Origin: Tubulanus polymorphus
Lineage: Eukaryota > Animalia > Nemertea
Length of the DNA stretch: 64,000 nt
NCBI RefSeq assembly: GCF_964204645.1
Contig: NC_134026.1
Span: 643,950-707,949 of the forward strand
Direction of reading: 5' to 3'
This document shows positions 12,301 through 54,039 of the stretch, piece by piece (position 1 is the first letter of the stretch; every line of letters begins with the position of its first letter). Position numbers and translations under genes: made by a program. The notes beneath the pieces were generated by a model that searched no databases, was not told the DNA's origin, and saw nothing but the letters and a program-made list of their open reading frames with translations.

Positions 12301-15300
12301 AACAGCTAGAAAAATACTAAATACATTAGAAAGCATGTCGTCAGTACTACAGGTAATCTATTCATTAAACTACCATAAACATTGCAAATATGCCAGGAAA
12401 ACTCAGGGAATTTGACACATTTTACCAAAAACCTGGAAAACTCTGGGAATTTGGATAATGCTATTGACCACATATTTCTTTATCATTACGTGTTTCAATG
12501 AAAATGGAATGAATTGTAACATTCTTAACCTAGAAATGTTGTAATTGTTTTTTAGGATGCGAAGAAAATACCATCGTACTCGGCAACAAATACCTCTTCA
12601 GCATTTTCAGTAAGTTACATGTGTATAATTTGAAGTCTTTCTTATTCAAACTATCTTCACATGCTTAAATCTGTATTATTTATTATTGCACACTTTTAGG
12701 CGGATAGTTATCGTTCCAAGCATACCCCATATAAAAATTTGGTAAGTTCATCGTTACCTAGACTGAATGCAAAGTACACGTCGTATCTACCGGTGATGCA
12801 GCAAATATCGAGAAAAATAAGAGAATTTGTTTGATAGCTTTGAATGTATATTTGTAGGGTCCCCCGGTGAATAGGTTGAACATATCGACTCCTGCATCTC
12901 ACGCCAAAATGTGGCAACCTCCGACTACTGAAAAGGTATCATTTGACAATTCAATTAAGATATATTGCAGCGAAGTACGAGACGTTTCAAATCAGTACCG
13001 GTAATTGGGACGATGAGATAAATCTATCATCATTGTTCCTGTCACTTTGAATCAATGAAATCAAACTGAACCTTCAATAACTGGGACTAATGAGTAATTT
13101 GTTATCTACATAATTTGATGTATATTTTGTAGGTATTGTTTAAAGAGACTCCGCAGTCGTCTAAAGCTTCGAGCGGTAAGATGAGACGAGAGAAAGGTTC
13201 TCATTATTCCGCGAAACGACTCGAGGAGGAAGACCAAGAATTAAATTTACCGGAATTACCAACCGGATTCACTCTGCCTGTAAATAGTAATATCCAATTA
13301 AACATCGGTACTCGATTCAATCATCAGGATACGACAGACGATGATACTCCTCGCAGTCCGACGTTTACGTTCTCGACTCCGATCGAAAAATCAACACCAT
13401 CGAATTCATCGAAGAAAATATCTGATACTAGTGTGGTAAGTGTCGGTGGAAACTTCATTTAACGGTTACTGTTTAGGCTAAACAAAAATGATACCTTGTT
13501 TCTCCGCAGCGGCCGGGTCATTTTAGTAAAATATGATAAAATTTGTAAACAGTTCATTTCTATAGCGGCCGGGTCTGTTATGGGAAAATTGATCACGATT
13601 TTTAAAATAGTAATGTATAGGGTAGATAGGCGGCCGGCCGGGTCAACTTTTAAACTCAGCAGAGCGGAAAAACAAGTTATCAATTTTTTTTAGCCTTATA
13701 TCAGGGTTCTTACAGATCAGGAATATCAGGGAATTCTGTCTGTATTTTTGAAAATCGGGTAATTGTTTTGGTGTCTTGTTGTTGTTGGTGACGAGGAAGA
13801 AACCGCTGCCATTGAGGATCAGGGATTCAAGGGCCCTAGAAATATCAAAGGGATTTAGAAAAACTTGATCTATAACTATATATAATATGTATAGAAAACT
13901 AATGATGATTTTTGCTGCAGGATTTCAAATTCAGCACACCTATACACGTAGAGAAAGAGAATGGAAATGAACCTAACAGCGATATTACTGTACCATCTAC
14001 TAAAACTTCAGGTTTCCTGTTTGGAGCGAAAGGTATGGGCCGTTTCATGATAAAAAAGGAAATAATACCATAACTACTGATTGCCCGTAAATTTGGATCG
14101 TTTATTTTTGTAGCTAAATCGGTTTTGAGTCCGATATCTTCAGAAACTCCGTTGATAATGAAGTCTGGTAGTGTATTAGGTGCATTAAAAAGTGAGTATA
14201 AATTTACATAAAAATAGTTCTTTTTCGCATCAAGTCAATAACCTATAAATCATCTTAGTACAATAGCCCTTACACTCAGACATGGAGAATAGATTATAAG
14301 ATTAAAAAGCTCAATGTATACGACAAAAAAGATTAAAAACAAAATTTATTGAAAAATCAAAAGTCAATATTTTCGATTCCTCTCTAGAAACCATCATCTT
14401 TGAAATTTGTGTATCTTATAAAATGTATGTAAATCATGTATTCATATTTAATTTGTAGCTAATGACAAAAATACTAATGCGATGATGAAACCAGCAAATG
14501 AACTAAAGAAGGGAAGTGTTATGGATATTCTTAAGAAAGGTACGAATCAATCTCTACCAGTATTCAGTTTAATGTTCCATAGTTTTTGACCTCCTTTGTT
14601 TGTGGTTTTAGGAAGCATTGATAATTCATTTGGTGCGAAACCGGCTCAGGTTATAAAGACATCAGGCAGTGTTATGGATATTCTCGGAGCTGCTTCTAAA
14701 CCGGTGAGTTATTGAAAATATTTACTTGTTTTAAATGACAACCTTTCCCGGTAGAAATGACCAAACAATGATTGAGTTCATGAATTAGTTGAATTAATTC
14801 AAAATCAATTACTGTGAGAACTAGGGCAAAGTCACCAGGTTTTTTGAACCATGAAAATTAGTTTCACATGAGAGTAGTGTCTGTGTAAGATAACAAACAT
14901 TCGATTGAATGGTTGATAGGTATTTCATTCGATTTTAAAGAAAAAGTTTCATTTTTCAGAAATCGTCGACTATGATTTCGTTAGCAGATCAATTTAAGAA
15001 ACCGGAAGGAAGTTGGGAATGTAATTCATGTTTGGTCGTCAATAAATCAACAGATAGTAAATGTGTAGCGTGCACAGCCAGTAAACCAGTCGCGGCTGTA
15101 AACTCATCAGTAATCACCAGTAAATCTTCTACCTCGAACAATTCAATATTCAAAACGAACTCAGACATCGATTTACTCGAGCGTTTTAAACCTCCCGCGA
15201 CTAACTGGGAATGTCCGGTGTGTATGATCAGTAATAAATCTGAGGCTATGAAATGTATAGCATGTGAAACGACTAAGCCAGGGGGAGGTGCTAAACCAGG

Positions 15301-18300
15301 GGGAGGTGCTAAACTACCCAGTCTAGGAGATATGTTCAAAAAACAAACTGAAAACAAATGGGAATGCTCCACGTGTATGGTGATGAACGAAAACAGTAAA
15401 ACAAAGTGCGTAGCGTGCGAGGCTAATAAACCAGGAGCACTCCCTCCATTGGGGAAAGAGTTCTCGATGCCAGTTGGAAACTGGGAATGCTCCACGTGTT
15501 TAGTGCCGAATAAATGCGACGTTACGAAATGCGTGGCTTGTGAAACGAGTAAACCGGGATTCGAAGCCAGCAATCCGAACAATAAGAAGTGGGAGTGTCT
15601 GACATGTATGATTTACAACAAGACGGACGCGTTGAAATGTGCCGCCTGCGAGTCGCCTAATCCTAATCCGCCTAAACAACAACAGCAGATCGGGTTCGGG
15701 GATAGATTCAAACCGCCTGCTGATAGCTGGGAGTGCGATACATGCCTCGTGAACAATAAACCCACTAGTGAGAAGTGTATAGCTTGCAGTTCTCCGAGAG
15801 CTGGTAGTCAGGTCACATCAGGTATTTATCGTCTGTTGTTTATTTGAATTTGTTTCTAACCTCTTATGAATCAAATTTGAATTGAACAAATGTTACAAAA
15901 CCCTTCAGGGAACGAGGAATTCTATAACCGATAGTTCATTATATCTTGCAGGTTTTACTAAACCAGTTGGAGGACCTTTCCAATTCAAACCATCGACGTC
16001 TGAGAATAAAACATCATCGCCGTTCGGTGGTTTCACATCTGAGTCGTCCGATTCGACCGGGTTTAAATTACCGGCCTCGACGACTGGTGGATTTTCATTC
16101 AAACCGGCCGCCGTTGATTCCGCGAAATCGATAAATCCGTTTGCTGCGAGTCCGACGAATAATACCGGTTTGAAATTACCGGCTGCGACTGTTGATTCGA
16201 AACCGGTCGGGTTCGCGTTTAATACAACTACAGATACAGACATTACTGTGAAACCTGCTGAAACGAGTGCGGTACCGCCCCGCAACGATAAGACACCGTC
16301 TGCTGCTGTCGTATCGAGCGACTCGTTTAAATCGAGCGAATCTTCAAAACTACCGAGTTATAATGAAGCGGTTAAAACCACGACGACTAAAAACAGCGGA
16401 TTCTCATTCGGAAATACTGAAAATAAAACTGTATTACCAGTCGCAGGGTCGGTATTCGGTTCAGTTGATAAACCAAGCGTTGAGTCGTTCAGTTCAGCTA
16501 GTAGTAGTTTATTCATGTTCGGGGCGCCTAAAGACACTTCAACGCCGTCACTCAGTAAACCGTTAGGGGCTGGCGGTAGTTTTGGAGCCGGTAATCCTTT
16601 ACTCACCGGTGGATTTAAAGCTGCGACCAGCGAGTTTAAACCCACGTCTATCGGAGGATTAGGATCGACCAGTCCCGGTCAGAAGAGGAAAGGTGGAACC
16701 GATGATGAACCACCAACTAAAAAACAAGGATCAGGTAAGATCACAGTATATAAAACATTAGATAATGAATCAGCGATGTACTTTATGAAAGCACCTTATC
16801 AACGGGAAGCTGCAGGTAAATATGTTTTTTGCGTTTTTTTTTTCAGGATTTCAATTTTCTACCGGAGCGTCAGTTGCTGCCCCCAACACAGGTATGGTAG
16901 TCGACCTCGATAATCATATCTGCATTCAATAACTCCTTAACCACTGCATCTCAGGGAATAGTCAGGGGGGAAAAGTCAAATAAAAGTGGCCATCATCATA
17001 TTTAAACTGTGTGCTGATATTATATCTGGTATTTAAGGTGGTATTGTGTTTGGATTACCCTCAGCTGCAGCTAGTTCGACCACCTCCACTGATAAACCCT
17101 CAACCGGTTTATTCACGTTTGGAGTTCCTACGAGCAGCGCCCAGGATTCATCGTCTAACAAACCATCCACCGGTAAGCCTTCAATTCAGTCTCTTGCAGC
17201 AGTTTGAGCAAATCTTATCTGATTTTAACTGCCTGAAATGTTTGTATGATCTATTAAAGTAATAGAGTTTTAACCGATTGTTGAATGTTTTGCGCAGGAT
17301 TTGGAAGTTTTGGTTCTGCGAATCAATCCTCATTCACATTCGGTGCTGTCTCTACGAATGCGGGTTCTACCTCAACGGTTCCAGCTCCGATGTTTGGTTC
17401 TACGTCTGGCCAGTCACAGTCGAATACGTTCAGTTCATCTATACCAGCATTTGGTTCTTCAGCTACTGGATCTACACCATTTGGTTCTTCAGCTACCAGC
17501 TCTACATTTGGTTCCTCAGCTACTGGGTCTACACCATTTGGTTCTTCAGCTACTGGATCTACACCATTTGGTTCTGCAGCTACCAGCTCTACCACATTTG
17601 GTTCCTCAGCTACCGGCTCTACCACATTTGGTTCCTCAGCTACTGGATCTACACCATTCGGTTCGTCAGCTACTGCTCCCATATCATTTGGTAACAATTT
17701 GACTCCGAGTTTTGGCTCTACTACGACAGCAGGTTCTACTACGCCATCGTTTGGATCAGCTACTCCTGCGTTCGGTCAGTCATCCACGCCTGCGTTCGGG
17801 CAGCAGGCAGCCGTTCCTAGTTTTGGATCGAATTCATCTACAACAACTGGATTTGGAGCAGCTGCGCCTTCATTTGGATCAACTGCACCATTGTTTGGAC
17901 AGCAGCAGACGGCACCTAACACCGGTACGTTTGAAATACTCACAAATACACTAATTCATGTGGCGAAATTATTTTTAAACGATTTTGTTTGTGATTCAAA
18001 GTTTTGTGATTCATCAAAAAGTATTTTATGAAAATGTTCAGATCTCTGATATTATTCTGTTTTCTGACAGGTTTTAGCGCTTCATCTGCGTCTGCTAATC
18101 CGGCTAGTATTTTCCAGTTTGGAACACCTCAGGTAATTTGTTCGTAATCTTCAAAATCATCAAAAATAGTATTTTGTGTATTTAATTCTGTCAATGACTC
18201 TTGTGTATTAACAGACAGCTGCACAGCCAGCTGCTGCACCAGCGTCGAATGCAGGATTTAACTTCGCCGTAGCTGCACAGCAACCGAATACTGGAGGTTT

Positions 18301-29897: not shown

Positions 29898-30903
29898 ATG
29901 AAGTTTATGCTAGCACTTTTTGCCGCTTTTTGTGGCTTCGTCTGGTAAGATCTTTTTAGTAAATGAATTAATATTCAATTCACTAAATTAGAAACTAATG
30001 AATCAACGTTAATAAAAACATACGAATCGAATCTCACAATGTTTCAATCTTTCGCTAAGCGCTCATCGTCAGGGTTTACAAAAATAACTATAGATTTTGT
30101 ATTTTGAATTGATGAGATAATGGTTCATCAAAAAAACACATTTTTGTGAATTATTTTAGTTATGAAGCTGCTAATGGATCGGGTCACTGGTGTTGTACCG
30201 TTGAAGTGAAACCCGAATTTAAAGAGATGAACTACACAAAAGCTGTACCAGACTATAAGCAGATTAAACTAACAGAAACTGTTGGCTATGAAGAATGTTT
30301 TGGTGTTGATGGCGAAAGCACCTACTGTCCTGTGACAAATGAAAAAATCGTGTAAGTTAATTTTGCTGTTTGCTAAAATAGTTCGTATGGTAAAAATTCA
30401 ATGATAATAATTTACGTATTTTGTGGTTTATTTCTACTGTTTCTAGTAACGTGACCCGCTATAGAATCAAACACGTCCATGAACTGAGAGAAATGAAAGG
30501 ATCGTGCCCTCATGATAAACTCGATTGTTGCGATGGATATGTGAAATATAAGGACAACTGTTACGGTTAGTAAATCTACCGTTATCATCGCATAGAAATA
30601 CAATAGATTACTGAATTCAAGTGAAATATATATTCGATATCGTAAGAAGTGTTTTAACACGTTACCAAATCAATATTTGGTCCATCAAAATGTTAGAAAG
30701 TAGGGAGATTATAGTAAAACAAGAAAACAATTTTTGTAGACCAACAAAATTATTTGGTAACAGTAAATATATATTCATATTTTCATTGTTCTCATATTCG
30801 TGATTTCTTAAAAATTGTCACTTATTTTTGTCTTCATTTCATTCTAGGTAATGACGAAATCGAACAAGTAAAATTGTTGGACAGCTTGGGTCTTCTCGGA
30901 TAA
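29898..30903 (+). CDS. Cluster copy 6 (subfamily B)
   Basis: MKFMLALFAAFCGFVC|YEAANGSGHWCCTVEV..EECFGVDGESTYCPVTNEKIV|NVTRY..GSCPHDKLDCCDGYVKYKDNCY|GNDEIEQVKLLDSLGLLG*. Confidence 0.85.
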
Positions 30904-31255
30904 TATGTATTATTTTTTTGAGAAATACACAATATCTACTGGGAAATCATTACATTCTTTCTGTTTATCTCTTGTGGTACATCGGAGAAATTCCAACAAC
31001 TGCGTGACTTATTATACTGCGTTCCTGAGTTGTCTGCATTCTGAACTCCCAACTTCCTTCAAATTCAGTGCCGAAATCCCTTTTTACTTTTCGTAGGAAT
31101 ATTTTTGAGGTCATTGTGCGCAAGCTGAAAATGTAAATGCCAAATAAATTAATTGCATACCACGGAGTTGTCAAACATAACACGTTTTCAAGATAAACCA
31201 AGTGTGTTGATATATTGATGTAAAATGTATGTTGTTGTCAGATAAACAGGTGACA

Positions 31256-32129
31256 ATGATTCGAGAAGTCACGATTTTTTTGTTTTTCTGTGGATTTTTG
31301 TTGCATTTGTCAAATGCACAACAAAATAAACAGTAAGTTGTTTCTTTTAAGAGGATTTGATGTTTGAAAAAATGAACTACCCAATATTGCTGTTAGACAG
31401 TACCTCTCAGAAAGGTGCATCTCACACCCGTCAGAGTGTCAGAGAAATTTGATTGTGGAACAGTTTAACTCAATTACATATCTATTTATCAGGTCGAGAA
31501 AGTGGTGCTGCGATACGATACGGCCATCAATTAAGGAACTGAGAGAGTTAACATACGCTCTCAAAGTCATGAAAACCGTTATTCTTAAAAAGAAGGTCGG
31601 ATATAAAAGATGCCCCGGTCGCCTTTTGAAAAAATGTCCTATCTATGAAGAAGTGAGGAAGTAAGGTTCCAAATTTTTTTTCGTTACACCTGAGGCTGGT
31701 TGCAATAATGAGTCAACCTTTTCCCGAGATTTAAGACCATTTTTAGATTAAGGCTACACCCCAGAATGCTTGCAGAATACTATCGGAATTCCTGCTACGA
31801 TTTTCATGTTTTCCCTACAGACAGGTTCCTCGTTACAAGTCAATGCCTAAAACTGAGCTGACAATTACTCCCGGACAATGTCCTGAGAAAGATTTGATTT
31901 GCTGCGAAGGATACGAAATGTACAAGGGCGAATGTTACGGTAAGGATACATACCAAAACACAATCAGTTTCATACGTTATCATTTAGATATAGATAGCCT
32001 TTATCCGCACTTTAATTGACTTTTTTGATGTTGTTTTTTTGTTCTTTATTCCTTTTTTTTCTATCAGATCCTACAGATATGGACAGCGTAAAGACTCTGG
32101 AATCGTTGGGTTTGCTCGGTATTAAGTAA
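31256..32129 (+). CDS. Cluster copy 7 (subfamily B)
   Basis: MIREVTIFLFFCGFLLHLSNA..|SRKWCCDTI..KRCPGRLLKKCPIYEEVRK|QVPRY..GQCPEKDLICCEGYEMYKGECY|DPTDMDSVKTLESLGLLGIK*. Confidence 0.85.
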
Positions 32130-32396
32130 TTTTGTCAACTATAGAAAATAAAACACGAACATCATCTCTGAGTTTTTGAGCTTTCGTTACATTGGGATTA
32201 TGGCAAGCCCCGTTTGCTTGATTTTTTTATGGCTGGAAATATAGTGGAACAGAATTCACCTACAATCAACAGTCCATATTATTGACAAATGAATTAATAA
32301 GTACTATCACGTAGTTGTCAAAAATAACACATGTTCTACAGATATAGAATGTAGTTATTTAGCAATACATAATTGTTGTCAGATAAACAGTTGACT

Positions 32397-33280
32397 ATGT
32401 TTCGTGAAGTCGTAATTTTTTTGTTTCTCGGAGGATTTTTGTTGCATTCGTCGAATGCGCAAAACACCAGCAATAAACAGTAAGTGGATTTTCAAGGCTA
32501 TTTCTGAACGATTATAAACTTGAACACTTAACTTTGAAACTTAATTCAAAGGTAACTGTTTTTTTTTAAATTTTTTATTTCACACTTGACCCATCCATTT
32601 GAAAAATCACTGAAACTCTGATAATTGGAATCTGCTCGTCTAACAAAAAGGATTTGATTCCTGTATAGAAGATAAACTGAATTGAATTTCATCAACTTGA
32701 AATTGTTTGTGTAAGTAGACCCAGTGTTGTTTATGCTTTGTTTCTTTCGTTTTTAGGGTGAAAAAATGGTGCTGCGCCAAAACACCGAAACCGGTTGAGG
32801 AAAAAGTAACGTTAACTTACGCCCATAAAGTCATGAAACTGGTTGTTATTTACAACATTAAAGAATATGAAAGATGTCCCGGTCGTCTTTTGAAGAAATG
32901 TCCTGTTCTACAAGAAGTGCATCAGTAAGATCAAAATCAATTTTAATGAATGCAATTTCTTGGTTTTGCATAGAATACCTTCATAAAAAGCTCCTTATTT
33001 TTTCATCTCGCAGATATGTTCCTCGCTACGAGGTGAGGCGTAAAACTGAAGTGCTGAAATCCGCCGGGGTATGCGCCGATGAAGATTTGATTTGCTGTGA
33101 AGGATATGAAATGTACAAGGGTGAATGTTACGGTAAGAACGATTTCAAAAACTGAATTTTTCAAGCGCATTAAAAATTCTCCGATGTTGATTTGATAAAG
33201 GAATTTTTTTTTATTTGACAGAACCATCAGCTTTGGAAAATGCGAAAGTTCTGGAATCTTTGGGATTGCTCGGTATCTAG
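32397..33280 (+). CDS. Cluster copy 8 (subfamily B; closest paralog of copy 7)
   Basis: MFREVVIFLFLGGFLLHSSNA..|VKKWCCAKT..ERCPGRLLKKCPVLQEVHQ|YVPRY..GVCADEDLICCEGYEMYKGECY|EPSALENAKVLESLGLLGI*. Confidence 0.85.
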
Positions 33281-33927
33281 CTTGAAATAACTTGTCAACT
33301 AAATAGAAAATAAAACATTATTACAATATTATCTCTAATAGATCGTTTAAATTTGATTTGTTATAAATTCTGGGATTGTGACAAGATCTGCCACAGACGT
33401 AGAATGTAACTCGAACTCTGTAAGACCTTGGAGCAGTCTGATTACTCCAAGGTAAGACGTAGTATCTGTGGAAAACTAGAACGGTATTTAGAATAGGGAC
33501 AAAGACAATGATTATTTTCCATTCATAAGTGTGGCTTTATGTAAACCAAGAGGTACAAAGACATTAAGTCACAAATATGCTCTTCAAACTAAATTCCAGT
33601 TAAGCCCTGCCAGTTCAGGTAAGATCTGAATCTTACTTAAACCTGATATTCACTAATTTTGCCTTTTGAGCATTTATTGTTGTAGGTTTCGGGCTGCAAC
33701 AACTCTCGAACTTACCCTTACCCTTCTACCGATAAGACATCGAAGTCGTGTGTTTGATTTATAATCAGTTGTTTTCTTTCTATATCCGTCATGTTGATTT
33801 ATATATTTGTGTTTGTGCGTCAAGGTAAATATGGAAAATTAAACAATCGATACGTTATCTCATGGGATCTTTTAAAAAGTGAAAAAATGATACTTAGATC
33901 GGGAAATTAGATCGAGATTTGTTGACG

Positions 33928-34654
33928 ATGAGGACACAGATAGTTGTAGCGCTTTTTGTCTGTTTCGCTTTTGCGGTTATAAACACTGTCACCGCGGGTG
34001 AAAGGTTGGTAATCACTTCATAAACATTCTAACGCAACGATCGTGCGGCTTTTCTTCAGATATCTAACCACCATTCTGATAATCGTTGATTTTTGTTCGT
34101 TTTAGCACAAAATGGTGCTGCAATGTGACACCGGAAGTGAAAGAGGAGAAACGTGTGATGTACTACGCGCAGAAGGTGATCGACAGGAAGTCTGTTATTA
34201 GCACTGCTGAATACTTGAAATGCATGGAAAAACATCGCAATTCAAAAGCTTATAAACCATGCGGTACTCCAGTACCAAAATATGTGTATGTATTGGAATT
34301 TCTATCGTCTCTTTGTACCCACAACATTCCAGAAATTGAAAAGTTCAATCAGATACGAAAAATAATCTTGATTGTTCAGCTGAATAATGAATTTCCTCCT
34401 TTCTGTTTGAATCCAGAGCATCGATTCGTTACGTTAAAAAACAGAAAGTTGACAAGGTGCAAGTAAAAGCAAGATGTCCGGAAGAAAATCTGGTTTGCTG
34501 TGAAGGCTATCAGCCACACAATGGCGACTGCTTGGGTAAATAATGAGACTTCGATGATATCCTTTCCCTTGAACATTTTCAGTTCATTTACATCATGATT
34601 GTTTTTCTTGTAGACGCAGAAGAACTCGCTTTAATGTTGGCACTTGGAATGTAA
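33928..34654 (+). CDS. Cluster copy 9 (subfamily B)
   Basis: MRTQIVVALFVCFAFAVINTVTAGES|TKWCCNVT..LKCMEKHRNSKAYKPCGTPVPKYV|ASIRY..ARCPEENLVCCEGYQPHNGDCL|DAEELALMLALGM*. Confidence 0.83.
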
Positions 34655-35063
34655 TTCTTGACAATAAAAACATATATCAATACGAAACGTTTTCTTTTCT
34701 CGTCTTCTTACTTGAAAGGGATGATATTTCTTGTAACTTTCTGCGAGGATGTGAGAATTTGAGGAACAATCTATCCATGAGATGATTTATCAAATGCGTG
34801 GGTATTATATCGCCTATAACTACACGAATGTTTGGTTAATGATACAATATTCATAGATTGTGGCATTGATAAGAACGTGCCAGGAAGAGCTAGCGACGAT
34901 TCACTATATTTATATGAAAAATAGAATAATCATTTATTTATTTAATTTCTTATCACATTCAATGTGTGTCTACGGCGTAACGGAAACAGCTGTGAGCTAT
35001 ACCAGGGTAGATTCCTGCTATTTTCACAGCTAAAATTCAACCAGAAAAATCAAAATCTCTGCG

Positions 35064-36098
35064 ATGAAGATCTTTATTCTTGTTTCTCTTATCATCTGCT
35101 TCGTGGAACTGCAAGCACAACTGCATAAACTCGAGTAAACCTCATTCTAATCATTCCGCTACATTTCATTCGCGGTTTTCTAAATATTTTCCTAAGGCAT
35201 TTTCTTCATTGTAGTACTGAAAAATGGTGTTGTTCGATTGTACCCGAGGACAAGGTGGAAACGAAAACGTATTCGTACGCTAAGAAGACAGAGAAGAAGA
35301 TAATGATCAAAGTAAAGAAAGGATACGAACCTTGCGAACATGAGTACGACATTGAAGGAGAACCTACTGGAATGTCATGTACAGTTTACGAGAACGTACC
35401 GCAGTAAGTTTCTGTTCTTATGATGGAAAATTTGAAGAACCAAATTCGCAGTTGAATTCTCGGTTGAATATGACTCCATTGTTGAAACACATGGGATTTC
35501 TTACAACCTTAACCTGACCATTAGCTGTGGAACCGAATCCAGTAAATGCGGTAACTGCACGTGAATATTTGTTTACAGTACTGTAACAAGGTATAAGATT
35601 GACTGGAAAATTGAAGAGGTGAGGAATCCACAGAGATGTCCATCTGACAAAATGATCTGCTGCGAGGGATATGAAATGTTCAATGGAGAATGTTACGGTT
35701 AGTAGCAGCCCAGCTATACTTATATGTTGGAAAATTGTAACGATGACAAACTACTTTGATTTCTAATGTCTCCATTTTCAAACATTTCATCATCAACAAT
35801 CAGGCAATGACATTTTGAGCTTAGGCTTATAATATCTTCTTATTTTAATAATTTGATGAAATACTGTGTCCTTGTTTGAAACTACTCCTACGTTCAGATA
35901 GAAAGCAAAAAGAGTCGGAAAAGGTTTCTATGTGTTGATGATTCATTTTCCACGATTCGACGATATCCTAGTATAGTTATCATCATTCTCGAATTCATTC
36001 AGAGTGTGTTCTATATCATCTTCTGATCTTATTTTGCAGAACCATCAGAAATCGAGAACGTGAAACTACTGACATCCCTCGGATTGATGACCAAATAA
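35064..36098 (+). CDS. Cluster copy 10 (subfamily B)
   Basis: MKIFILVSLIICFVELQA..|TEKWCCSIV..EPCEHEYDIEGEPTGMSCTVYENVPH|TVTRY..QRCPSDKMICCEGYEMFNGECY|EPSEIENVKLLTSLGLMTK*. Confidence 0.83.
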
Positions 36099-36195
36099 TA
36101 ACAATGTACACGTCGTATATCTATTGATAAAGTTACTTCATGTATCTGTTGTATTCATCAAATGCATTGAATAAATCTATCAAATAAACATCAGT

Positions 36196-37267
36196 TTATC
36201 CAAGTCCAAGGTTTCCTAACATCTCGGCAATCTCGGCGTCTTCTTTCGCTGTGGACAGAAAAACGACGACATATGAGGAAATTGAAAAATTTCACGAAAA
36301 ATTACATGAAGTGTACTTTTTGCCAATCTTAGAGATAAAACATATTTCCGATGCTATACGTGACGTCATAGAACTAGTTCCCAAACATCATATTGACAAT
36401 GGCATGGCAATGGACTGTGACTTTTACTTCAGTTAACCGCTCGCGTTTGATGGTCAATATACCGTGACGTGAGTTCGCGTAAAATGACCACGATTATATT
36501 TGACTTACTCAGACATTGTCCATTGACGTATTTATAACCATCACAACAATGTAGATATTGTTTAGGACAAGGAACGTTCAGGTGAACTTGTTTGGTCACG
36601 TGTTGAATGACGTAACGAGGAACCTGACTGAAAATAGATACAAGCAGCGTCATTTAAAAAAAACCGTTGATAAATGATCGTTGGTGACGATCTTTGAATT
36701 AAACGGCTGGTTGACCTGAAAGTCATACTGGTCTCAAAGGTTCAACAATTTTAACCACGGGACTTCTTAAAATACGGGAATACGATACAAAATATGATTC
36801 AGATATAAAAAATGAAAAAAACAACATTCATAACTTACCTGATATACTCCTTATAAATAGGACAGTCATATTGACCGGGGACTATATCATCTTCACATTC
36901 TTTATATCCTATTATTGATGTCCTGGTTATATTTTTCATGATAAGTTTTGCTTCTGTAATTTGCATCTTCTCAGTTCGTTCCGTCTCGATGCTGCAACAC
37001 CAGCTCCTGTTAAATAGGATAGAATCATAAGCATTAAGATCATAGAATTAGCCGTTAGTTGGCTATAAAGTTAATGGCACTAAAGACTAGTAATTCACTT
37101 TTAAAGATAGCGAAATGATAGAATTGAAAGATATAAAATGATTTTGAATTTAACATCTTGACTTACTGCTCCTTTTTCCCATTATTCTTGTTCGGTTTAG
37201 CCGATGAACCGAGGCAAACTACCGATGTGAATAGAGCTAAAACTAAAACCCGCTTGACCAGTTCCAT
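36196..37267 (-). CDS. Cluster copy 11 (subfamily B, inverted)
   Basis: MELVKRVLVLALFTSVVCLGSSA..|SWCCSIET..KECEDDIVPGQYDCPIYKEYIS|QVPRY..VPCPKQYLHCCDGYKYVNGQCL|TKEDAEIAEMLGNLGLG*. Confidence 0.83.
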
Positions 37268-39388: not shown

Positions 39389-40173
39389 ATGAAATTCCTC
39401 GTGATTTTGGCTTTATTTTTGGCTGTCGCCGTGGCCGAAGAAGATGCTGAACGGATGAAACGTTTTCTGTCTTCCAGGCAGTATGATCTCCCATCGGAAG
39501 TATTTCAATTAGCCAAAAGAAGCAGGTTCGTTAGAAATGTCAGCCAGAAAAAAATCAATTTCGTTAACAATTCGTGTCAGGCCTATACTCTTCATGGTCA
39601 ACGATCATTTCAGCAATGGCAATTTCTGTTGTAAAAATCTACCGGTCACCACGGTAACCAAAACACGTCTGGTTAAGAGGGAGAAAGTCGAGAAATCCGA
39701 ACACAAGATCGGCAAACAGGACTGCGGTTTGTGGGGATTGAAAGATTGTGATTTATATGACTTTAAGTACAGGTTCGTTGATATCAGATCAAATCGATTT
39801 TTGAAAATTCATTTATTGAAAGATGATAATTATGAAATGATGATTATAATTGTTTTGTATAGAATGTCGTATTTTTACGAAGTGGAGAATTTCATCACGA
39901 CAGTTGACGGAACCTGCGCTGAAGAGAACATAGTTTGCTGTAATCAGTACATATTTGTGAAACCTCTTACAAAATGTGTCCGTAAGTAAAACAACCGAAT
40001 AAATCTATTTCACAATTTTGCGGAAAATATATTCCTTTCATTATTGCGACGGTGCTTTCATTGAAATACCCAAATTCAATTATCGAATCTTCAGAAATAT
40101 TGATGCTTTGATTATGTTGTGTCTTTCAGTGATGTCAGATCTTGGAAGGATAATAGAAGAACTCGAAGGATAA
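39389..40173 (+). CDS. Cluster copy 13 (subfamily C)
   Basis: MKFLVILALFLAVAVA..DLPSEVFQLAKRSS|NGNFCCKNLP..QDCGLWGLKDCDLYDFKYR|MSYFY..GTCAEENIVCCNQYIFVKPLTKCV|LMSDLGRIIEELEG*. Confidence 0.85.
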
Positions 40174-40387: not shown

Positions 40388-41355
40388 TCAGCCATTCAAT
40401 TTGTCTATGACGCTGTCGAGTTCATCAATAGCTGAAAGGAAATAATAGAAAACAACCTGAATAACGGAATAGACGAATAAGTACCGAGGGTCACACAATG
40501 CATGACCATTCACCAGCTAATACGACTCATGACCTCTGAATACAAGCAATAGATTCTTTAAAGTTTCAGTTTGTTTTGATACACACCGACACATTTGTTG
40601 AGAGCTTTTATGAACATGAAGCCTTCACAGCAAACTTTATCTTGTTCTGCACAACTTTGATCAGTTGGTGCCGCGTATTTCTCGATCGCGTAATACCAGA
40701 ACATTCTGAAACAGTTTTAATACAATCTAATTTCTGCTTTATTTATACTAATACGTCGGAACCACGTGAATTTCTATACCTGTATCTCATAGCATATTTC
40801 GAGCAGACTTCAGTAAAAAACAAGCCACATCTTTCATATCCGGAAATGTAATTCCATTTTTCTGCTCGTCCACGTTTTTCCATACGGGTTTTAATGATTG
40901 GCCTCTTCGGGGCATTCTTACAGCAGAAATTCTCAGAACTTCAATGAAATAAAGAATTAATATGTTGAGACCGGTGTCAACCCAAGAAATAGATTAGTAT
41001 ATATCTTTAAAGCGTTTGTTCCCCGGGGACCGTAACAACGTCTGGTATTCCTTCACCTGTCTGGTTGTCTCCACAGAGATCTCCGTCGCTCTACGATTCT
41101 GTGATAGATCAGATCAGACACTAAGGTTCTTGGCGAAGGTATTCCAGACTATTCGAAAAATGTTCTACTTGAGGATAAACAAGACTATGATGTCAATTTT
41201 TTGCTGTCAATAAAGCGGGGCTCGTTTTAACGAATGAAAATATTGTTCAAATATAGTCACCTTCGTTTTGAAATATTACTCGGTTTTGACGTTTCCCCGC
41301 CATGATCAAATGCTGCTGCTAAACTGAGCAGAACCAGTAGAGTAATACACCTCAT
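40388..41355 (-). CDS. Cluster copy 14 (subfamily C)
   Basis: MRCITLLVLLSLAAA..ISKRS|SENFCCKNAP..ERCGLFFTEVCSKYAMRYR|MFWYY..QSCAEQDKVCCEGFMFIKALNKCV|AIDELDSVIDKLNG*. Confidence 0.8.
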
Positions 41356-45236: not shown

Positions 45237-45767
45237 TTATCCTTTAAATGCATTGATGTTGGACACCAATTTTGAAAGTTCTCGAAAATCTAGAAAATAA
45301 TAAAAGGACATTTAGAACTGATGTTTTTGACCAAGTTCCACGGTTATGAGCTAACATTTCAATAATTGAAAATAAACTAATTTCATCTCACAGTCAAATC
45401 AAAACCCACAACTAAGGAACTGGATGCTTGAATGAAGAACGTCATAACTAAAAACCCTCGTCACATATTTTCACTTACCAACACATTTGTTAATAGATTT
45501 GATAAATAAGTATCCCGTACAACAACTGCGATCTTTTTGTGGACATCCTCTCAAACTAGCTCCATTCCGACAACAATATCTATTATCAGAGCTAAAAATA
45601 GAACAAATTTTATCGTTTAGCAGAAAAAAAAACGTATTAGAAAAATTATACAAGTTCAAGTGAAAATCATGAATCAATCACCTCCGTCTCCTGTTTGTTC
45701 TGTCCTGGCAATCTGCCATCGTGATTAACATAATCGCTATTAAAACCAGAATACCGACGGTTTTCAT
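45237..45767 (-). CDS. Cluster copy 17: stalk-less 6-Cys miniprotein (subfamily C-like)
   Basis: 3 exons: MKTVGILVLIAIMLITMADCQDRTNRRRS|SDNRYCCRNGASLRGCPQKDRSCCTGYLFIKSINKCV|DFRELSKLVSNINAFKG*. Confidence 0.82.
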
Positions 45768-46342: not shown

Positions 46343-48415
46343 TCACTGCGCATCATCAGCGCGCACCGGGCTTATTGTTCTATTCGGGAATGTATTCTCT
46401 TTTCTAGGTGTTCCGCAACACGAATCGTCGGAAGTTTCCTCCAGTGTCTCGAGATGTCGCGAGGGTCGCGTCTCGAACTGACACGACTTTGAAAATCGTC
46501 TCAAATCCGAAGTTAGATCTTTGATTATTTCCTCGTAAATATCGCATCCGACTGAAATAGGTCTACGTGACCTGGGCACCGTGTTCAGATCAGTCAGCGA
46601 TCTGGAACGTTTCGAATCTTTGACCGCGGTCCGCTCGTTGCGACACTCGCTTCGCGTATCTAAACCTACTTTACTATAAAAGCACTCGATCGACCGCGAG
46701 ATATCTCGAGATATTTCCGACAATTTTCTATTCATATCTCGAGACGCTAAAGATACATCGAGATAGCTACTATCCTCTCGATCGCTAGAACTAACCGAGT
46801 ATCGTTCGAACTTTCTCGAACCACCGCCGCCATCCGAGTCGTGATAATTCTTGCGAAGTATCGTGCTGCCCATTTTAGGATATCGGGGATAAGAACTGAC
46901 GCTGCGTCTGGAATCTTGTGAAGAATGGCTCAACGTACTGAGATTACTGTTCGAATAACCGTGTTTCATCACGTGCTCGTTATTTAACATCTGTCCACGT
47001 AAAATAGAGGGAATCATACTGACTTTGATATAGTTATCTGAAGCTAGTAAGCGTTCCGGGCTGAGTGGGGGTAACGGTAGGGTATCACGGGTATCACGGG
47101 TATCACGGGTATCACGGGTTTTTCGCTCGGTCTGAACGCGAGAATATGTATTAGATGAAGAATAGCCATCACTAGTGCTCATGGTCGGGACGGAAGTTTT
47201 AGTTAAATAAGAAACTGAAGTGTCGTGACTGGCGAATGAACTGGTCGATGCAGATTTTGAAATCCGTTTATCGTCAATATGGAAATAGTTAGAGTTTGAA
47301 GTCGGTTGGGTGTTCTCGGTTGGAACTCGCGCATCTGACGATTTTGCGCGTAGTTGATCGAAATGAAGCCGCGTTTCATTCTGTTTACTCGAATTGATAG
47401 ATGTATTCGACATCGTCGAGACGGGAACGGTTTGGTGACAAAAACACTTGTAATAAATAAGTTGCGACGCCATAGCAACTATCAGACCTCCGACAACGAT
47501 AGCACCGTATATGAAAAAATTACGAGTAAATGGCGAATTACGTTGATCGAAAATCGTCCATGTCACGAATAAAGTCACGTTTTCTAAAGCCATTATCACA
47601 TAAAAAGACACGAGTCTGTATTTAGAATATTCGCCTATGTCTACGTAAGCGAATATGTACGTATAACCGGCCACTAAATGGACGAGGAAATTGTGATATT
47701 GCGCGGCGTTCTTTTTGGAATAAACTCCCAGAATTTGTAACCAAACGAACATGATGAACCAATGAAGAACGGTAGCCAGAAATATCCAATAACGATAGGC
47801 GATCGCAAATAAACCCAGTACACAAACTCTCGACGATATCTCTCCTAATCTCCAAAATAATTTTAGGATTATCCGAGCGAAAATGTTCATATTGCCGACA
47901 AGACGGGATTCGTGATTTCTGCAATGCGTGGCCAGGCACCAGACTAACGAGACGCAGTCCACGACAAGAGCTGCCAGAATTCTCCAATCGAATACAGCGT
48001 TGAATTGTAATATCAGAAAACAACACGCTATGATCCTCGGAAAACTTCCAGCAAATGCATTTATCAATTGAAGGAAAGATATTTTTTTCATTTTGTCTTT
48101 GGTTTTAGTTTCGTCCGTAGAAACAGTCACGCATCTATAAATAATTCCTAATTGTAACAAATGTGACGTCACTTCAACGACTCGTTGTAAAACGACAGCC
48201 CGTTTCCGGCGCCAATTTCTTCCATCGGCGTAAAACCAATGTAGCGACAGACACTGCATCATGAGTAGGGGTAGAACGGCCAAACCGAGAAATACCCCGA
48301 ACCATACCGTCTGATAGCGAGTGTAGAAAAAATGGCACAGAATCGCGTTCACCGCTAACTGTATAACATGCGTTAAACCAGTGAATGTAGAGAAGCATAT
48401 CGCGTACACAAACAT
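46343..48415 (-). CDS. XK-related protein (XKR/CED-8 lipid scramblase family) with long low-complexity C-terminal tail
   Basis: Multi-TM domain with WFG..LPLLMMQCLSLHWF, HLLQLGIIYR, AFAGSFPR, WRLGEISSRVCVLGLF, HWFIM, FYVIMALEN, YYKCFCH. Start placed at MFVYAIC, just after the acceptor at ~48430; the true N-terminus is uncertain. Confidence 0.85.
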   Translation of the reverse strand: MFVYAICFSTFTGLTHVIQLAVNAILCHFFYTRYQTVWFGVFLGLAVLPLLMMQCLSLHWFYADGRNWRRKRAVVLQRVVEVTSHLLQLGIIYRCVTVSTDETKTKDKMKKISFLQLINAFAGSFPRIIACCFLILQFNAVFDWRILAALVVDCVSLVWCLATHCRNHESRLVGNMNIFARIILKLFWRLGEISSRVCVLGLFAIAYRYWIFLATVLHWFIMFVWLQILGVYSKKNAAQYHNFLVHLVAGYTYIFAYVDIGEYSKYRLVSFYVIMALENVTLFVTWTIFDQRNSPFTRNFFIYGAIVVGGLIVAMASQLIYYKCFCHQTVPVSTMSNTSINSSKQNETRLHFDQLRAKSSDARVPTENTQPTSNSNYFHIDDKRISKSASTSSFASHDTSVSYLTKTSVPTMSTSDGYSSSNTYSRVQTERKTRDTRDTRDTRDTLPLPPLSPERLLASDNYIKVSMIPSILRGQMLNNEHVMKHGYSNSNLSTLSHSSQDSRRSVSSYPRYPKMGSTILRKNYHDSDGGGGSRKFERYSVSSSDREDSSYLDVSLASRDMNRKLSEISRDISRSIECFYSKVGLDTRSECRNERTAVKDSKRSRSLTDLNTVPRSRRPISVGCDIYEEIIKDLTSDLRRFSKSCQFETRPSRHLETLEETSDDSCCGTPRKENTFPNRTISPVRADDAQ

Positions 48416-51400
48416 CGTGAATTTAAATCTGAAAAAAAAAACAAATTCTATTAGAAGAACATTCACTGTAGTATATATCCGTGTTAAACTCAGATTTAAA
48501 AATGACAAATCGCTAGGAAAGAAATGAGTCATGTGAATTTGAATATCCAAGAAACTGGATTTCAAATGCATTTTTAGTGGTGAATTGCAAAAACACAATG
48601 CTTTTTACCTTTCAATTACAGCTTTTGTAACAAACTAAACTAGATTTACGATATTCGGGTATATATTACACGCGGTTCTTTGCTAGTTACTAAAAACACA
48701 CATAACAGGGTTATATTTGAATTAGGTGGCAATATTTGACAAATGTAAACCATTCTCTTTGCCGCGAGCAAAATTGGTTGGAACCTGAAACCAGCTAATG
48801 GAACAAAACAAGAATAGGTTCAATATTTACTCACGGTTTCGTGTGAGCGAAATACTTATAGAATGTGCTATAAAAGTTTAGAAGATTGACTTTATTTGAC
48901 ATATTTCCGCATTTGAGAAATATGTAATTCATATAATTCGTCGTATACATGTACTCAATAAGTGTAAGAATAATGCATAAAAAGTAGTCAAATTTGAACA
49001 GATGTGAGCTAGTTAACATCCAAAAAGGAGACAATAATTTGATTGAAATAAAACTACGAATCTATATTCTAGATTGGCCGTAACAATCAGGCTGAGAATA
49101 TGCAGAAAACAGACAAGAAATATTACCTTCAGCGATAAGATTCCTGTTCATGTTATCGTGGACCTTGATGAGTCCACATTTTCTGAAGTTGATCACTCGA
49201 AGAAACCCAGCTTGGTTTAGGCGACGTCTGGTCCCGTGTTAACGTGGGAACCTCTTTTAGATCATGCTGGTTAACGGTCACGTCTGAATACGAAATCCAC
49301 GGATAAATGTGCATTTGATAATAAACGTAGTTGATATGCAAACAATAGGTATTTAACACCTCAATTTGGAGAATTATCGACGAATGAAAACGTAATAAAC
49401 ATAAGTGCAAAACGATTCTAAGAAAATATCGCTAACGATTCATTTTCCAGGTCGCAGTGGGAAACTTCACGGTCCGTTATGACGTAGAAATAGCTGAATA
49501 GGGAAGAAATTCGCTAATCTTTTTTCTGATGAATGCATTTAGAGGACAATTAAAACTCGATCATGAAACCGGATTTGCCATTTTACACCGAAGATTTCAA
49601 TTCAGAAAAAGTCTTCAGAAAAATATGATCGCATTTCAACACATGCTCCAATCAGAGATTGTATTCATTCATGATTAAGACTTAACTTCATTTGGTTTGA
49701 AACGAAGATTATCTGATAATTCGCCTCATTAGTTATCAACAATATCAATTCCTCTCGTCTGACAAAACAACAAAAATAATCTGTCGTGAATAAAAATGAT
49801 AAGATCTTAAATTGCTTTTTCTGTTTATTGGGTCAACCCGAACCAAACTAATCCCTGTAGAATGTTTGAAAACCGTTTATTCTATCGCATTTTCCTACCT
49901 GGTTATACCGAATAATATCATATTCCACTCCACCACGAGCGCTTTCCGTATTAACTTATATTCGTCGAACTGTCCACGTCAAATAATCCATAATCAATTT
50001 GGTTATTGTGAGATGAATTAATAAATCATAATTTCGTGCCAGTGTCAATAGATAATTACCGCTATTAGGCTAACAGCGGCGGGTACTTGGCACTGAAAGT
50101 AAAACTACAGGACTGTCACGCAAGGATTTCAGTATAACAAGCACTGGCACCGCGTGAAAGAAGAAATTATTTGGAATATAATTGGAACAGTTTATCAGCG
50201 ACAATAGTTCGTTAAAACTGTGAAAAATTTTCTCATGCTGTCGTTCGAATATTTTGACACGCATGCGTGCGAAATACTATTCAGAAAAAGACCAATCAGT
50301 TTGTTATTTATTCAAGACACGATTTCCTCAGACGGTTCTCAGATTTGGGAAAAAAATAGCCGTATCCGTCGTGGTATACTCGTCTTTTTAGACCTTGACC
50401 TGTGCAAGCGATAAACATCAGAATCCTCTTACAGTTCGCTTGATTGTGGGTTTATTCTTCGGTCAGTCGGTTTGAGAAAATCCAACAAAACTAGAGGACT
50501 TAAATTTAACAACTAAACATTTATTTCAAAGCGATTTCAGAGCTTTCATCGAACGTACATTCATTTAGACAAATATTACATTTATCAACATTAATACACT
50601 TATAATCTGAGGGACAAGAAAGAAACTTCACATTTTACCAGTCGGCCAAATCTCTTCCTATATCAGGTACAGTTAGTACCTGTTATACGGTATTTTCTGC
50701 AACTTGCAGCTACCATTCCACCCAGGCTTGTATTCTGTTTAAAGCAATATCAGCTGATCTAAAGTAAATGCATTGCCATGCTTCTGAATTTTTCAAAAAT
50801 GAACTACAATAATCTTTTATGGCAAACCTATCCATATATAGTGATAACTGATGTATGTTAGAATTGTCATGTTTCTCAGGTTCTTCTAAATCTCTGATAT
50901 CACCGGAGGGTAAACTATCTACTCGGGGGACACTGTCCGATGTAATCTCCTATCTCTATAGCTATCATCTCATTTTATTCAGTTTATACAACATCTAGAT
51001 CTATTATGTAGATACTAATAGCACATTCATATAGTACAATATTAACAATTTTGCTTTAATACTTAATAACCATCGTTTTATTTTATTTTACCTCTTTATG
51101 AAATACCAATAGAGGTAGGGGTGAGGGGTAACCCATTCCTGAATTACATCATGTTTTATAAAATATCACAATAGACCGAAAGCCACAAGTAGAAACTACA
51201 TTCATTATCCATTGATAAGTCGTTATTTTGCGCAAAATAAAAACATTTTAAAATATTAGTCTTTAGCAAAACATGCAGTTTAAAAAGAGGAACAAGAAAC
51301 CACACTCAATAAATTCTTGATTTGAGAATATTATATCAATGAGTCTAAAAATTTAAGCAGGGCTTGGTCATTCGCTGGTAAAACTCGCGATGTAAGCTCC

Positions 51401-51684: not shown

Positions 51685-53616
51685 TCAATGCATTTCGATG
51701 AATGGTTTCAGATTACGAGGTATATCTGCATCGGAAAACGTTAACTGATGTTTCCGAATTGCGGCAGCTGCCAAACATTTCAACGATAAATAATCGAACA
51801 CCGCGACCGGACAACCCTGTTTAATCAACTCAACGTAGGCTACTTTCAGTTTGTGATTACACGCGTCGACGTGCGCTCCGTGATCTAACAGATAGGTGGC
51901 GATACCGCTTAAATCAGAATTACCGACGCCGGCGACGGTGTCGTTTTGCATGCTTTCAGCGAGTACGTGGAGTGCGGTATTACCGTAAAGATCGGTAGCG
52001 TTCACGTTTATACCGCATTCTATCAGTATTTTAACGATCGGTAAATTCGGTAGATTCGAACATTGTTCGTGATCGACGGTCGATGATTCCTTGCATAGAG
52101 CCAGGTGAAGAAGTGTTTCTTTCTTCGGCCCGAGAGGTTTCAACGATATCAGCTTGTGAACGAGTTTACGAAATATGAACTTCTCGTCGTCTTTAAGATC
52201 TAACGCGCACAACAGATTCGTTACGTGTAAGAATAAGAGTAAAACCGTATGGAAAAATTCCATATATTGAACGAAATTTGAATCGGACGAATCGGGCATC
52301 AAACGAATCCCGTTTTCGATCTGATCGGCGGCGATCGTTAAAACTTTATAAACGTCCGCGAATTGAATCGAAGTGCGACTAGAAATCGGCAGAACCTGCT
52401 CTTCCAACCAGACCTCCCAGAACAAACGCGTGATCGCGAGTAAATGAATGAAAACGGTTTCCTGCGTGATCGGTTTATAATGCGTGTGACGTATCACTAG
52501 AACGTACGTCCAGATATCGATACATCGTTGATACCGATGAGTATCGGCGTAGACAGCGCCTCGATACATCAACCCGAATGTCGTGTCTTTATGAGTCGGG
52601 CCGAGGATACGTTCTCTGATTAACAGCGCTTGCATGTAAATAGCGTCGGGATTCTGAGCGACGACGTTCAAGTCGTTCTCGTCGATGAATTCGATCGTGT
52701 TCTCGTAAGCCGGATTCGCCGATTTATTCACGAGAAGCGATTTTTCGGTGACGCTCGACGCGAACTGTCGACGCAGCCGTAACGCCTCGCGCCAGAACGA
52801 CAAACCCTTCGGAATATCGTGTTTTTCATCGACGTAATTCGCGCCCATTAATTCGTAAGCTCGTACGATCATGTCTTTATCCGGGTTATTCTTGACGATC
52901 AGATACTCGACGATATCCTCGAATCCTCGCAGCGACGCCGTCTGCAACGCGTCGTCGCCGATTTCATTTTTCAGCGAAACGTCTGATTTGCGTTCGACGA
53001 GGAGTTGAACGGTTTCTAAGCGACCCTCGCGTATCGCGTAATGTAACGCGAGGTTTCCCGAGTTATCTTGAGCGTTCACTTTAGCTCCGTGTTCGATCAG
53101 AAACGTGCACAATTCTACGCTCTGTACCGAATTAATCAAACAAGTTCCACCATTGATGTTCGGTTTATGAATATCGGCGCGGTTTTCGACGAGTAATTTT
53201 ACGATGTCGATGTTCGACATGTAACAAGCGGAACGAACGGGTGTCGATTGGGTGTCAGACATCCCATTTACATCGGCTCCGTGTTGGATTAAAGATTTCA
53301 CCACGTCGACGTGATTAGCTACAGCCGCGCACCACAGAGGGGTAACCATGTGCTTCGAACGATCCTCGGCTACCTCGTAAACGCTGCGCTGCTCGATATC
53401 GACGTCGCATTCATCCAGGAAATAATTCACGAAATGCACGAAACCTTTTTTGCACGCGAGAAAAAAAGGCGTTTTGTCGTGGAATTTCAGCGATAATATT
53501 TTTGTTCGCGTCTTTTTATCCAATGGTTTTAATCGAGCTTTCGTTCGCCACAAGTTGTTCTGATCGACAAAATGCCAGATTTCTTTCATACAAGCGTAAA
53601 GTTCACTGGGCGTCAT
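51685..53616 (-). CDS. FEM1: Fem-1 homolog (ankyrin/TPR CRL2 substrate receptor), single coding exon
   Basis: TPLWCAA..STPVRSACY..GGTCLINSV ankyrin repeats; ALLIRERILGP.H.DT..YRGAVYAD; C-terminal SLKCLAA box. Start inferred at MTPSELY. Confidence 0.9.
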   Translation of the reverse strand: MTPSELYACMKEIWHFVDQNNLWRTKARLKPLDKKTRTKILSLKFHDKTPFFLACKKGFVHFVNYFLDECDVDIEQRSVYEVAEDRSKHMVTPLWCAAVANHVDVVKSLIQHGADVNGMSDTQSTPVRSACYMSNIDIVKLLVENRADIHKPNINGGTCLINSVQSVELCTFLIEHGAKVNAQDNSGNLALHYAIREGRLETVQLLVERKSDVSLKNEIGDDALQTASLRGFEDIVEYLIVKNNPDKDMIVRAYELMGANYVDEKHDIPKGLSFWREALRLRRQFASSVTEKSLLVNKSANPAYENTIEFIDENDLNVVAQNPDAIYMQALLIRERILGPTHKDTTFGLMYRGAVYADTHRYQRCIDIWTYVLVIRHTHYKPITQETVFIHLLAITRLFWEVWLEEQVLPISSRTSIQFADVYKVLTIAADQIENGIRLMPDSSDSNFVQYMEFFHTVLLLFLHVTNLLCALDLKDDEKFIFRKLVHKLISLKPLGPKKETLLHLALCKESSTVDHEQCSNLPNLPIVKILIECGINVNATDLYGNTALHVLAESMQNDTVAGVGNSDLSGIATYLLDHGAHVDACNHKLKVAYVELIKQGCPVAVFDYLSLKCLAAAAIRKHQLTFSDADIPRNLKPFIEMH

Positions 53617-54039
53617 TGTATTATCAGTCGTACAACCTGAAATAGAAAACAGTCGCCCGGTTATAACAGATTCAGTATCTGGTAGTAACTTGCTATTGCA
53701 TTCACTATCAGTGAGTAACAACAGGGATCAAATATGTCAAATGAATCCAATGAATTCAAGCCTTTAAAAACCTAGATCCGAAGGATGTAAAGCTACAGGT
53801 TATTTCATTGACTTTTTCATAATAAAAATTTGATTGACAGACATATTGAATTGAAGATGTGTCTGGAAAGTAATTTTTGTGATAAATTATCTGCATTATT
53901 TCAGTTACAGCTACAATCAATACTTAGATAGAATATTAAATCTTCAACGCACCTTTGATTATCTTAAGCATTTGAGCTTTCGTTTTGTGGAACGCTTCTA
54001 TTATCAATGATTAGCAAATTTCGACAATTTCGGTGCAAT

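Follow-up and report, generated by a model that had tools for sequence, protein, structure and literature searches.

The last gene of a paralogue array in the ribbon worm Tubulanus polymorphus encodes a protein that lacks the centre of its family's conserved domain, which raises the question of whether this shortened gene is a decaying copy, an artefact of the assembly, or a live derivative with a role of its own. The window analyzed is a stretch of 64,000 nucleotides of contig NC_134026.1, and a preliminary description of it had depicted the gene (copy 17) as a natural in-frame deletion mutant that retains an autonomous, toxin-like or perhaps capping six-cysteine mini-domain. The features needed to follow the argument are these:

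20826-45767, both strands: array of 17 paralogous genes; copies 1-10, 12 and 13 on the plus strand, copies 11 and 14-17 on the minus strand, with copy 17 last
40587-40938, minus strand: copy 14, the reference (RefSeq model P0003) and nearest full-length paralogue; exon A 40780-40938, a 74-nt intron, exon B 40587-40705
45682-45767, minus strand: copy 17 exon 1; ATG, hydrophobic leader (about residues 1-20, a signal peptide assigned by eye), short propeptide with a terminal tribasic site; phase-2 donor
45592-45681, minus strand: copy 17 intron 1; 90 nt, GT-AG, with the phase of the intron preceding exon A elsewhere in the array
45479-45591, minus strand: copy 17 fused exon 2; 113 nt, in which the first part of family exon A continues in frame into the last part of exon B; it carries the six mature cysteines
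45546-45569, minus strand: copy 17 linker; eight codons (RNGASLRG) from Cys2 to Cys5, where copies 12-14 have 64 codons and one intron
45290-45478, minus strand: copy 17 intron 2; 189 nt, GT-AG, phase 1 like the post-exon-B intron of the other copies; no hidden stalk exon
45237-45289, minus strand: copy 17 last exon; amphipathic helix, then a terminal Gly-stop that probably signals amidation

Copy 17 as a whole (45237-45767, minus strand) has three exons with GT-AG intron ends, which specify 83 amino acids in 252 nt with no internal stop. Each of copies 1-16 possesses eight cysteines, 63-76 residues between Cys2 and Cys5, and an intron that separates an exon A of the form W/Y/F-CC ... C-tip-C from an exon B of the form ... 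C-x6-CC-x-G-Y/F ... C. In copy 17 the introns that flank the middle exon agree in phase with the pre-exon-A and post-exon-B introns elsewhere in the array. The mature part contains six cysteines with the spacing CC-8-C-6-CC-11-C, and a further cysteine is located where the hydrophobic leader ends. The exon structure and the Cys2-Cys5 count, set against the 16 other copies, thus bear out the in-frame loss of the stalk, the tip and one intron, and the absence of the inner cysteine pair with retention of the six outer cysteines is likewise confirmed (six cysteines versus eight). The leader (by eye), the tribasic site, the last-exon helix and the terminal glycine are all present as had been described. 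The claimed replacement of about 55 residues by an eight-residue linker holds for the linker itself, and its size can be made exact, in that 64 residues in copies 12-14 correspond to 8 in copy 17, a net loss of 56. Consistent with this, the two halves of the domain map to opposite ends of the family hidden Markov model, at profile positions 52-62 (0.8 bits, very weak) and 125-145 (16.2 bits), and the same model recovered no orphan stalk or tip exon near copy 17. The deletion breakpoint falls inside the eight-codon linker; it and any microhomology can be placed no more finely because the DNA is too diverged. The 54-residue core has a net charge of +6 and a pI of 9.3, and its last helix has a hydrophobic moment of 0.80, the highest among the 17 copies. 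Judging from these features, the product would be a secreted, protease-cleaved and amidated peptide of about 6 kDa with what are likely to be three disulfides.

A profile built from the 16 exon A pieces recovered seven T. polymorphus RefSeq models, one of them identical to copy 14 across the query, and a profile search of 1.84 billion representative sequences recovered 122 proteins at E-values of 0.001 or better. The 27 of these that were looked up comprise ten from Tubulanus, four from Owenia, two each from Saccostrea and Lineus, one each from Rotaria, Seison, Mytilus, Liolophura and Watersipora, and four without a species; every one is named "uncharacterized", "unnamed" or "hypothetical". 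The family is accordingly found in nemerteans, an annelid, bivalves (oysters and mussels), a chiton, rotifers and a bryozoan. Its signature can be written WCC...C-P...CCxGY...C-helix, and 45 of the 66 full-length proteins of less than 240 residues end in glycine or in glycine plus basic residues. Copy 17 shows the family spacing of the outer six cysteines, the leader peptide and the last-exon helix. Across 79 domains parsed from 76 of 126 proteins the Cys2-Cys5 insert ranges from 23 to 284 residues, and 74 contain two or more inner cysteines; copy 17 has none. Four of the 79 also have no inner cysteine, namely P0117 from Rotaria (insert of 23 residues), P0093 from Saccostrea (40), P0080 from Owenia (48) and P0099 (49), so that its absence in copy 17 is a variant of the family rather than a ground for exclusion from it. 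These are predicted proteins, some of which may be gene-model errors, and P0117 is located on a contig of 1.8 kb. Like copy 17, all four possess just the six outer cysteines, a signal-like N-terminus and a C-terminal helix region; they differ from it in keeping arms of 23-49 residues on a neutral-to-acidic base, copy 17 with its 8 residues and cationic base being the shortest case found. Hence the loss, which had been treated as singular, is not so: the tip has gone repeatedly, and copy 17 is the extreme instance.

Several members display further architectures. In P0014 the family domain is fused to Link modules of the hyaluronan-binding type, and P0016 is a further member with a composite or tandem architecture; P0008 and P0023 are tandem members with two or three domains; and P0066, P0079, P0084, P0092, P0096 and P0108 have Cys2-Cys5 inserts of 102 to 284 residues, some of low complexity. 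P0019 is a T. polymorphus member that is not encoded within the window, and the family therefore has further loci in this species. The literature search found no paper on the family; the supplements of two mucus proteomes (PMC12846013, PMC11768458), which lay outside its reach, might list members. Neither of two family motifs is present in the available part of one supplement of PMC9415933, and the available portions of PMC9132205, PMC8557429 and PMC8419693 contain nothing bearing on the family.

The array itself provides a picture of how the sister copies vary. The 7-residue tip is retained in copies 1-5 and 12-16, and copies 6-11 (30160-37006) have variable loops of 7-14 residues in place of the aromatic glycine-rich tip. 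In copy 13 the intron that separates exon A from exon B (90 nt; 39773-39862, plus strand) is stop-free and in frame within an ORF at 39513-39989, such that its retention would add 30 residues to the arm. Ahead of the 17 start codons, within 250 nt, WGATAR (GATA-type) motifs occur 34 times against 16 expected, a count equalled by one of 5000 random sets, although the motif was picked after being seen and five of the starts were off by one base; this excess hints that the array might share GATA-driven expression. Flanking genes that could serve as synteny anchors include a rhodopsin-family GPCR (5030-5989, plus strand), a RanBP-zinc-finger/FG-repeat nucleoporin-like gene (14939-18031, plus strand), an XK-related gene (46343-48604, minus strand) and an ankyrin-repeat gene (51685-53727, minus strand), which we take to be fem-1-like.

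A model of copy 14 built with 74 sequences (pLDDT 89.4) predicts two strands (residues 43-69 and 75-100) that meet at a tip bounded by Cys69 and Cys77, along with a small base and a final helix at 126-137. According to this model, the part missing from copy 17 is predicted to be a long β-hairpin of about 27+26 residues that ends, in the full-length members, in an aromatic glycine-rich tip. The tip has the consensus C-G-F/L-L/W-G-W-x-R-C, and 41 of 45 cases include an aromatic residue; the arm has a median charge of +4 in 53 outside proteins, and hydrophobic alternation along it is weak. In the full-length members the arm and tip presumably extend to a ligand. The EMI domains of NimA and PEAR1 mediate adhesion, as stated in the accessible part of PMC13076899.

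In P0070 the positions of Cys1 and Cys7 are lost together, as read from the alignment. This joint loss, the pairing at the tip and the disulfide pattern of TGFBIp suggest the connections Cys1-Cys7, Cys6-Cys8, Cys3-Cys4 and Cys2-Cys5. In this arrangement Cys1-Cys7 and Cys6-Cys8 would hold the base and Cys3-Cys4 would close the tip, and Cys2-Cys5 would clamp the foot of the hairpin; what lies between Cys2 and Cys5 would therefore be a removable insert, and in copy 17 the same clamp would close a loop of just eight residues. The previously suggested autonomy of the six outer cysteines as a mini-domain is supported by the four tip-less relatives that carry these cysteines only, and by one confident model among five single-sequence predictions of the copy 17 middle exon (pLDDT 80.8 for the best, 47-56 for the other four).

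Fold and profile searches place the family in the neighborhood of the EMI domain (PF07546; EMILIN/multimerin, EGFL7, MEGF10/11). Like the EMI domain, it is an N-terminal, extracellular, cysteine-rich module ending in CCxG(Y/F)...C, and an extended antiparallel hairpin is likewise predicted for its full-length members. The available text of PMC3342094 describes EMI domains as having about 80 residues with seven cysteines at regular positions and the C-terminal consensus WRCCPG(Y/F)xGxxC. Against this consensus, the family has the CCxG(Y/F)...C element (among 61 outside domains, G is present in 41 and Y or F in 56), and differs in the W-R and the spacing. In place of seven cysteines it has eight (copy 17 has six), with a CC at the N-terminus and one additional C-P cysteine; it occurs as a stand-alone domain, and its last element is an amphipathic helix. 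In copy 17 the hairpin of the EMI domain is wholly missing. Of 74 members, six match the Pfam EMI model below threshold and none passes its cut-off of 25 bits, the highest score being 20.3; exon 2 of copy 17 has no Pfam match, be it to EMI, knottin or other models. In the Atlas, the copy 14 model aligns to a rotifer secreted-protein cluster at a TM-score of 0.65, and the N-termini of EGFL7 and MEGF10/11 at 0.42-0.48, below the bar at which the tool assigns a name. Thus, the family looks like EMI without being filed as EMI. True EMI domains have an extended β-turn structure that is absent from the EMI-like domains of MFAP2 and MFAP5, according to the part of a preprint at hand (bioRxiv 10.64898/2026.05.13.724420). 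The matrix-binding domain of these proteins, likened here by description only, is a shortened EMI-like fold of the kind proposed for copy 17, but has no C-terminal CC, which copy 17 keeps, and is part of larger matrix proteins. Sequence searches of the PDB returned nothing meaningful, and a search of PDB folds with the 37-residue model of the copy 17 middle exon gave no match. The full copy 14 model reached at best Z 3.4 in the PDB (rmsd 4.8, 53 aligned residues) and Foldseek E-values of 0.82 or worse with TM-scores of at most 0.22; these weak matches are long hairpins of a generic kind, found in pores, portals and flagellar rings, and were discounted as evidence for pore formation.

With regard to its descent, a tree on the shared parts groups copy 17 with copies 12-14 (support 94/100), with copy 14 as its nearest relative (84/68), and these four have in common an 11-residue Cys7-Cys8 loop and the terminal glycine. 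The Lineus protein P0036, which belongs to the same subfamily, has a full arm; given this and the nesting of copy 17 with copies 12-14, its short state is derived. An ancestral short state is ruled out, the arm and tip being present in 16 of the 17 copies and in P0036, and an origin from the neighboring copy 16 is disfavored (p-AU 0.02). A loss shared with the oyster protein P0093 is borderline (p-AU 0.053). A tree on which all five tip-less rows go back to one loss is rejected with whole cores (p-AU 0.007 for 37 rows), and is not rejected with the 45 columns that exclude the stalk (p-AU 0.285 for 76 rows).

The retained part of copy 17 differs from that of its relatives in charge. Over 45 aligned columns of the base and tail its charge is +5, while the 75 other rows average -2.15 (SD 2.12) and none reaches +5; that the base and helix of copy 17 are the most cationic of the 76 aligned rows is new here. 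Under a null model of substitutions drawn from the profile such a charge has a P of 0.011-0.029, for a charge measure that was picked post hoc. Compared with copy 14, the charge is shifted upward in eleven of the aligned columns and downward in two, and over the whole base and tail copy 17 has +7 against -4 to +3 in copies 1-16. The four other tip-less proteins show no cationic shift (-6 to -1). Additionally, the two residues preceding the second CC have turned polar in copy 17, with R at these sites in none and S in one of 61 outside domains.

Taken together, we favor, with a probability of roughly 0.45, the reading that copy 17, which arose by a genuine in-frame deletion within the copy 12-14 subfamily, encodes a live mini-protein of cationic character with an affinity for anionic surfaces. 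The genomic deletion removed 56 residues and one intron. In the full-length members the positive charge would reside on the arm, above a neutral-to-acidic base, and after loss of the arm it would have moved onto the base and helix of copy 17. Through this cationic base and amphipathic helix the peptide would attach to surfaces of negative charge, for example microbial membranes or the polyanions of mucus.

A rather less probable explanation is that the deletion is young and struck a working gene, so that copy 17 is an incipient pseudogene or a rare allele whose frame was inherited from its full-length ancestor. The product of copy 17 is absent from the protein collection, at either 27-88 or 89-2000 residues, which is in keeping with such a gene; however, five of the 16 full-length copies were likewise not retrieved as database proteins, against 11 that were, and short ORFs often go unannotated. 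Also in keeping with a young deletion are the position of copy 17 at the edge of the array and its single upstream GATA-type motif, the mean over the 17 copies being 2.0 and the background about 1. In simulations of neutral decay the share of runs with every hallmark intact was 57% at 0.01 substitutions per site, 6% at 0.05 and 0.2% at 0.1. The first figure suits a young deletion, whereas the other two mean that neutral decay would spare the hallmarks only briefly, a point in favor of a live gene; as the deletion is undated, the intact frame could be older than it. When random deletions from exon A to exon B were made in copy 14, 33% were in frame and 8.5% additionally kept the six outer cysteines while dropping both inner ones, an outcome in keeping with a chance event, but, in this simple and post hoc model, a linker of 10 residues or less as well was left in 0.9%, which renders the very short closed loop of copy 17 a rare result. 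The reversal of charge and the longer terminal branch, both specific to copy 17 (0.93 against 0.29 for copy 14), and the recurrence of tip-less members in other phyla also stand against it. Its base profile score (14.4, the second lowest of 16 copies scored) also fits relaxation. Also counting against the favored reading are pN of 0.35-0.46 and pS of 0.53-0.62 between copy 17 and copies 12-14, similar to the values among copies 12-14 themselves, and a relative-rate test that was significant with one of three outgroups (p 0.012, 0.18 and 0.75).

It is also conceivable, if improbable, that family members assemble through the base and the last helix, with copy 17 acting as an arm-less capping or dampening subunit. 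What copy 17 retains is exactly the base and the amphipathic last helix, and its cationic surface would pair well with copies 13 and 14, whose bases are acidic; the tandem members P0008 and P0023 might reflect such an assembly, and EMI domains might self-interact according to a review (PMC3342094, in its available part). Conversely, the retained surface has changed more than those of its sisters and its charge is reversed, which is not expected of an interface between like and like, and in the accessible part of PMC13076899 Drosophila NimA multimerizes without need for its EMI domain.

More improbable still is a venom or mucus toxin directed at animal ion channels or membranes. Nemerteans secrete cysteine-rich toxins, and the size of copy 17, its three predicted disulfides, basic cleavage site, terminal glycine and net charge of about +6 are general traits of peptide toxins; moreover, most mucus proteins of Cephalothrix cf. 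simula have no known match (PMC12846013, as far as its main text goes). Yet copy 17 matches no toxin family in Pfam or among PDB folds, its Atlas feature matches, at 0.82 or lower, are within the range of shuffled sequences, filter feeders, among them oysters, mussels and a bryozoan, commonly carry the parent family, and copy 17 is a single copy with no expansion within the window. The alpha-nemertides, inhibitor-cystine-knot toxins of nemerteans, have the framework C-C-CC-C-C, from which copy 17 departs with CC-C-CC-C, a C-terminal helix and an origin in a hairpin family that is not a knot. In the available part of PMC6410017 they are described as small secreted three-disulfide peptides of ribbon worms, a general likeness to copy 17. 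Alpha-1 is a knot of 31 residues. The label "toxin-like" hence finds no direct support, given the searches, the cysteine framework and the presence of the family in phyla other than the nemerteans, and nothing supports a neurotoxin role; the cationic shift keeps alive the reading as a defence peptide.

Finally, an assembly error that conceals a full-length gene in the animal is very unlikely: no record of the three runs examined, which are contigs and show no joints, spans the junction with 31 letters on both sides (those of X2 and X3 are 151 nt long, and one contains intron 1), but all 119 sampled 31-mers of the region occur in run X1 (a fraction of 1.00, though X1 could itself be the source sample), a second sample contributes a record of 151 nt that is identical to 45550-45700 and covers six of the eight linker codons, no near-identical repeat that could cause a mis-join exists (the best paralogous DNA matches are 75-77% over 44-56 nt), and the junction product is in frame.

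Returning to the favored reading of copy 17 as a live cationic mini-protein, its sequence would give it the features of the cationic disulfide-rich defence peptides, namely small size, net positive charge, amphipathicity and, per the leader, secretion. In its boldest form, which we consider doubtful, this would represent the birth of a cationic three-disulfide defence peptide, in which the arm was cut from an EMI-like protein and the stump recharged, the parents being a large undescribed spiralian family in which a fixed base bears a disulfide-clamped, exchangeable arm (from 8 up to 284 residues), a natural display scaffold. The family is in any case widespread in spiralians and has no Pfam model, and none of the 27 records looked up gives it a name. 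If copy 17 is not expressed, it would be an ordinary deletion within a paralogue array. If it is expressed, it would be a natural experiment in which an arm-less EMI-like base exists beside 16 full-length paralogues, and would illustrate a one-step route from a larger secreted protein to a small disulfide-rich peptide with a new cysteine framework.
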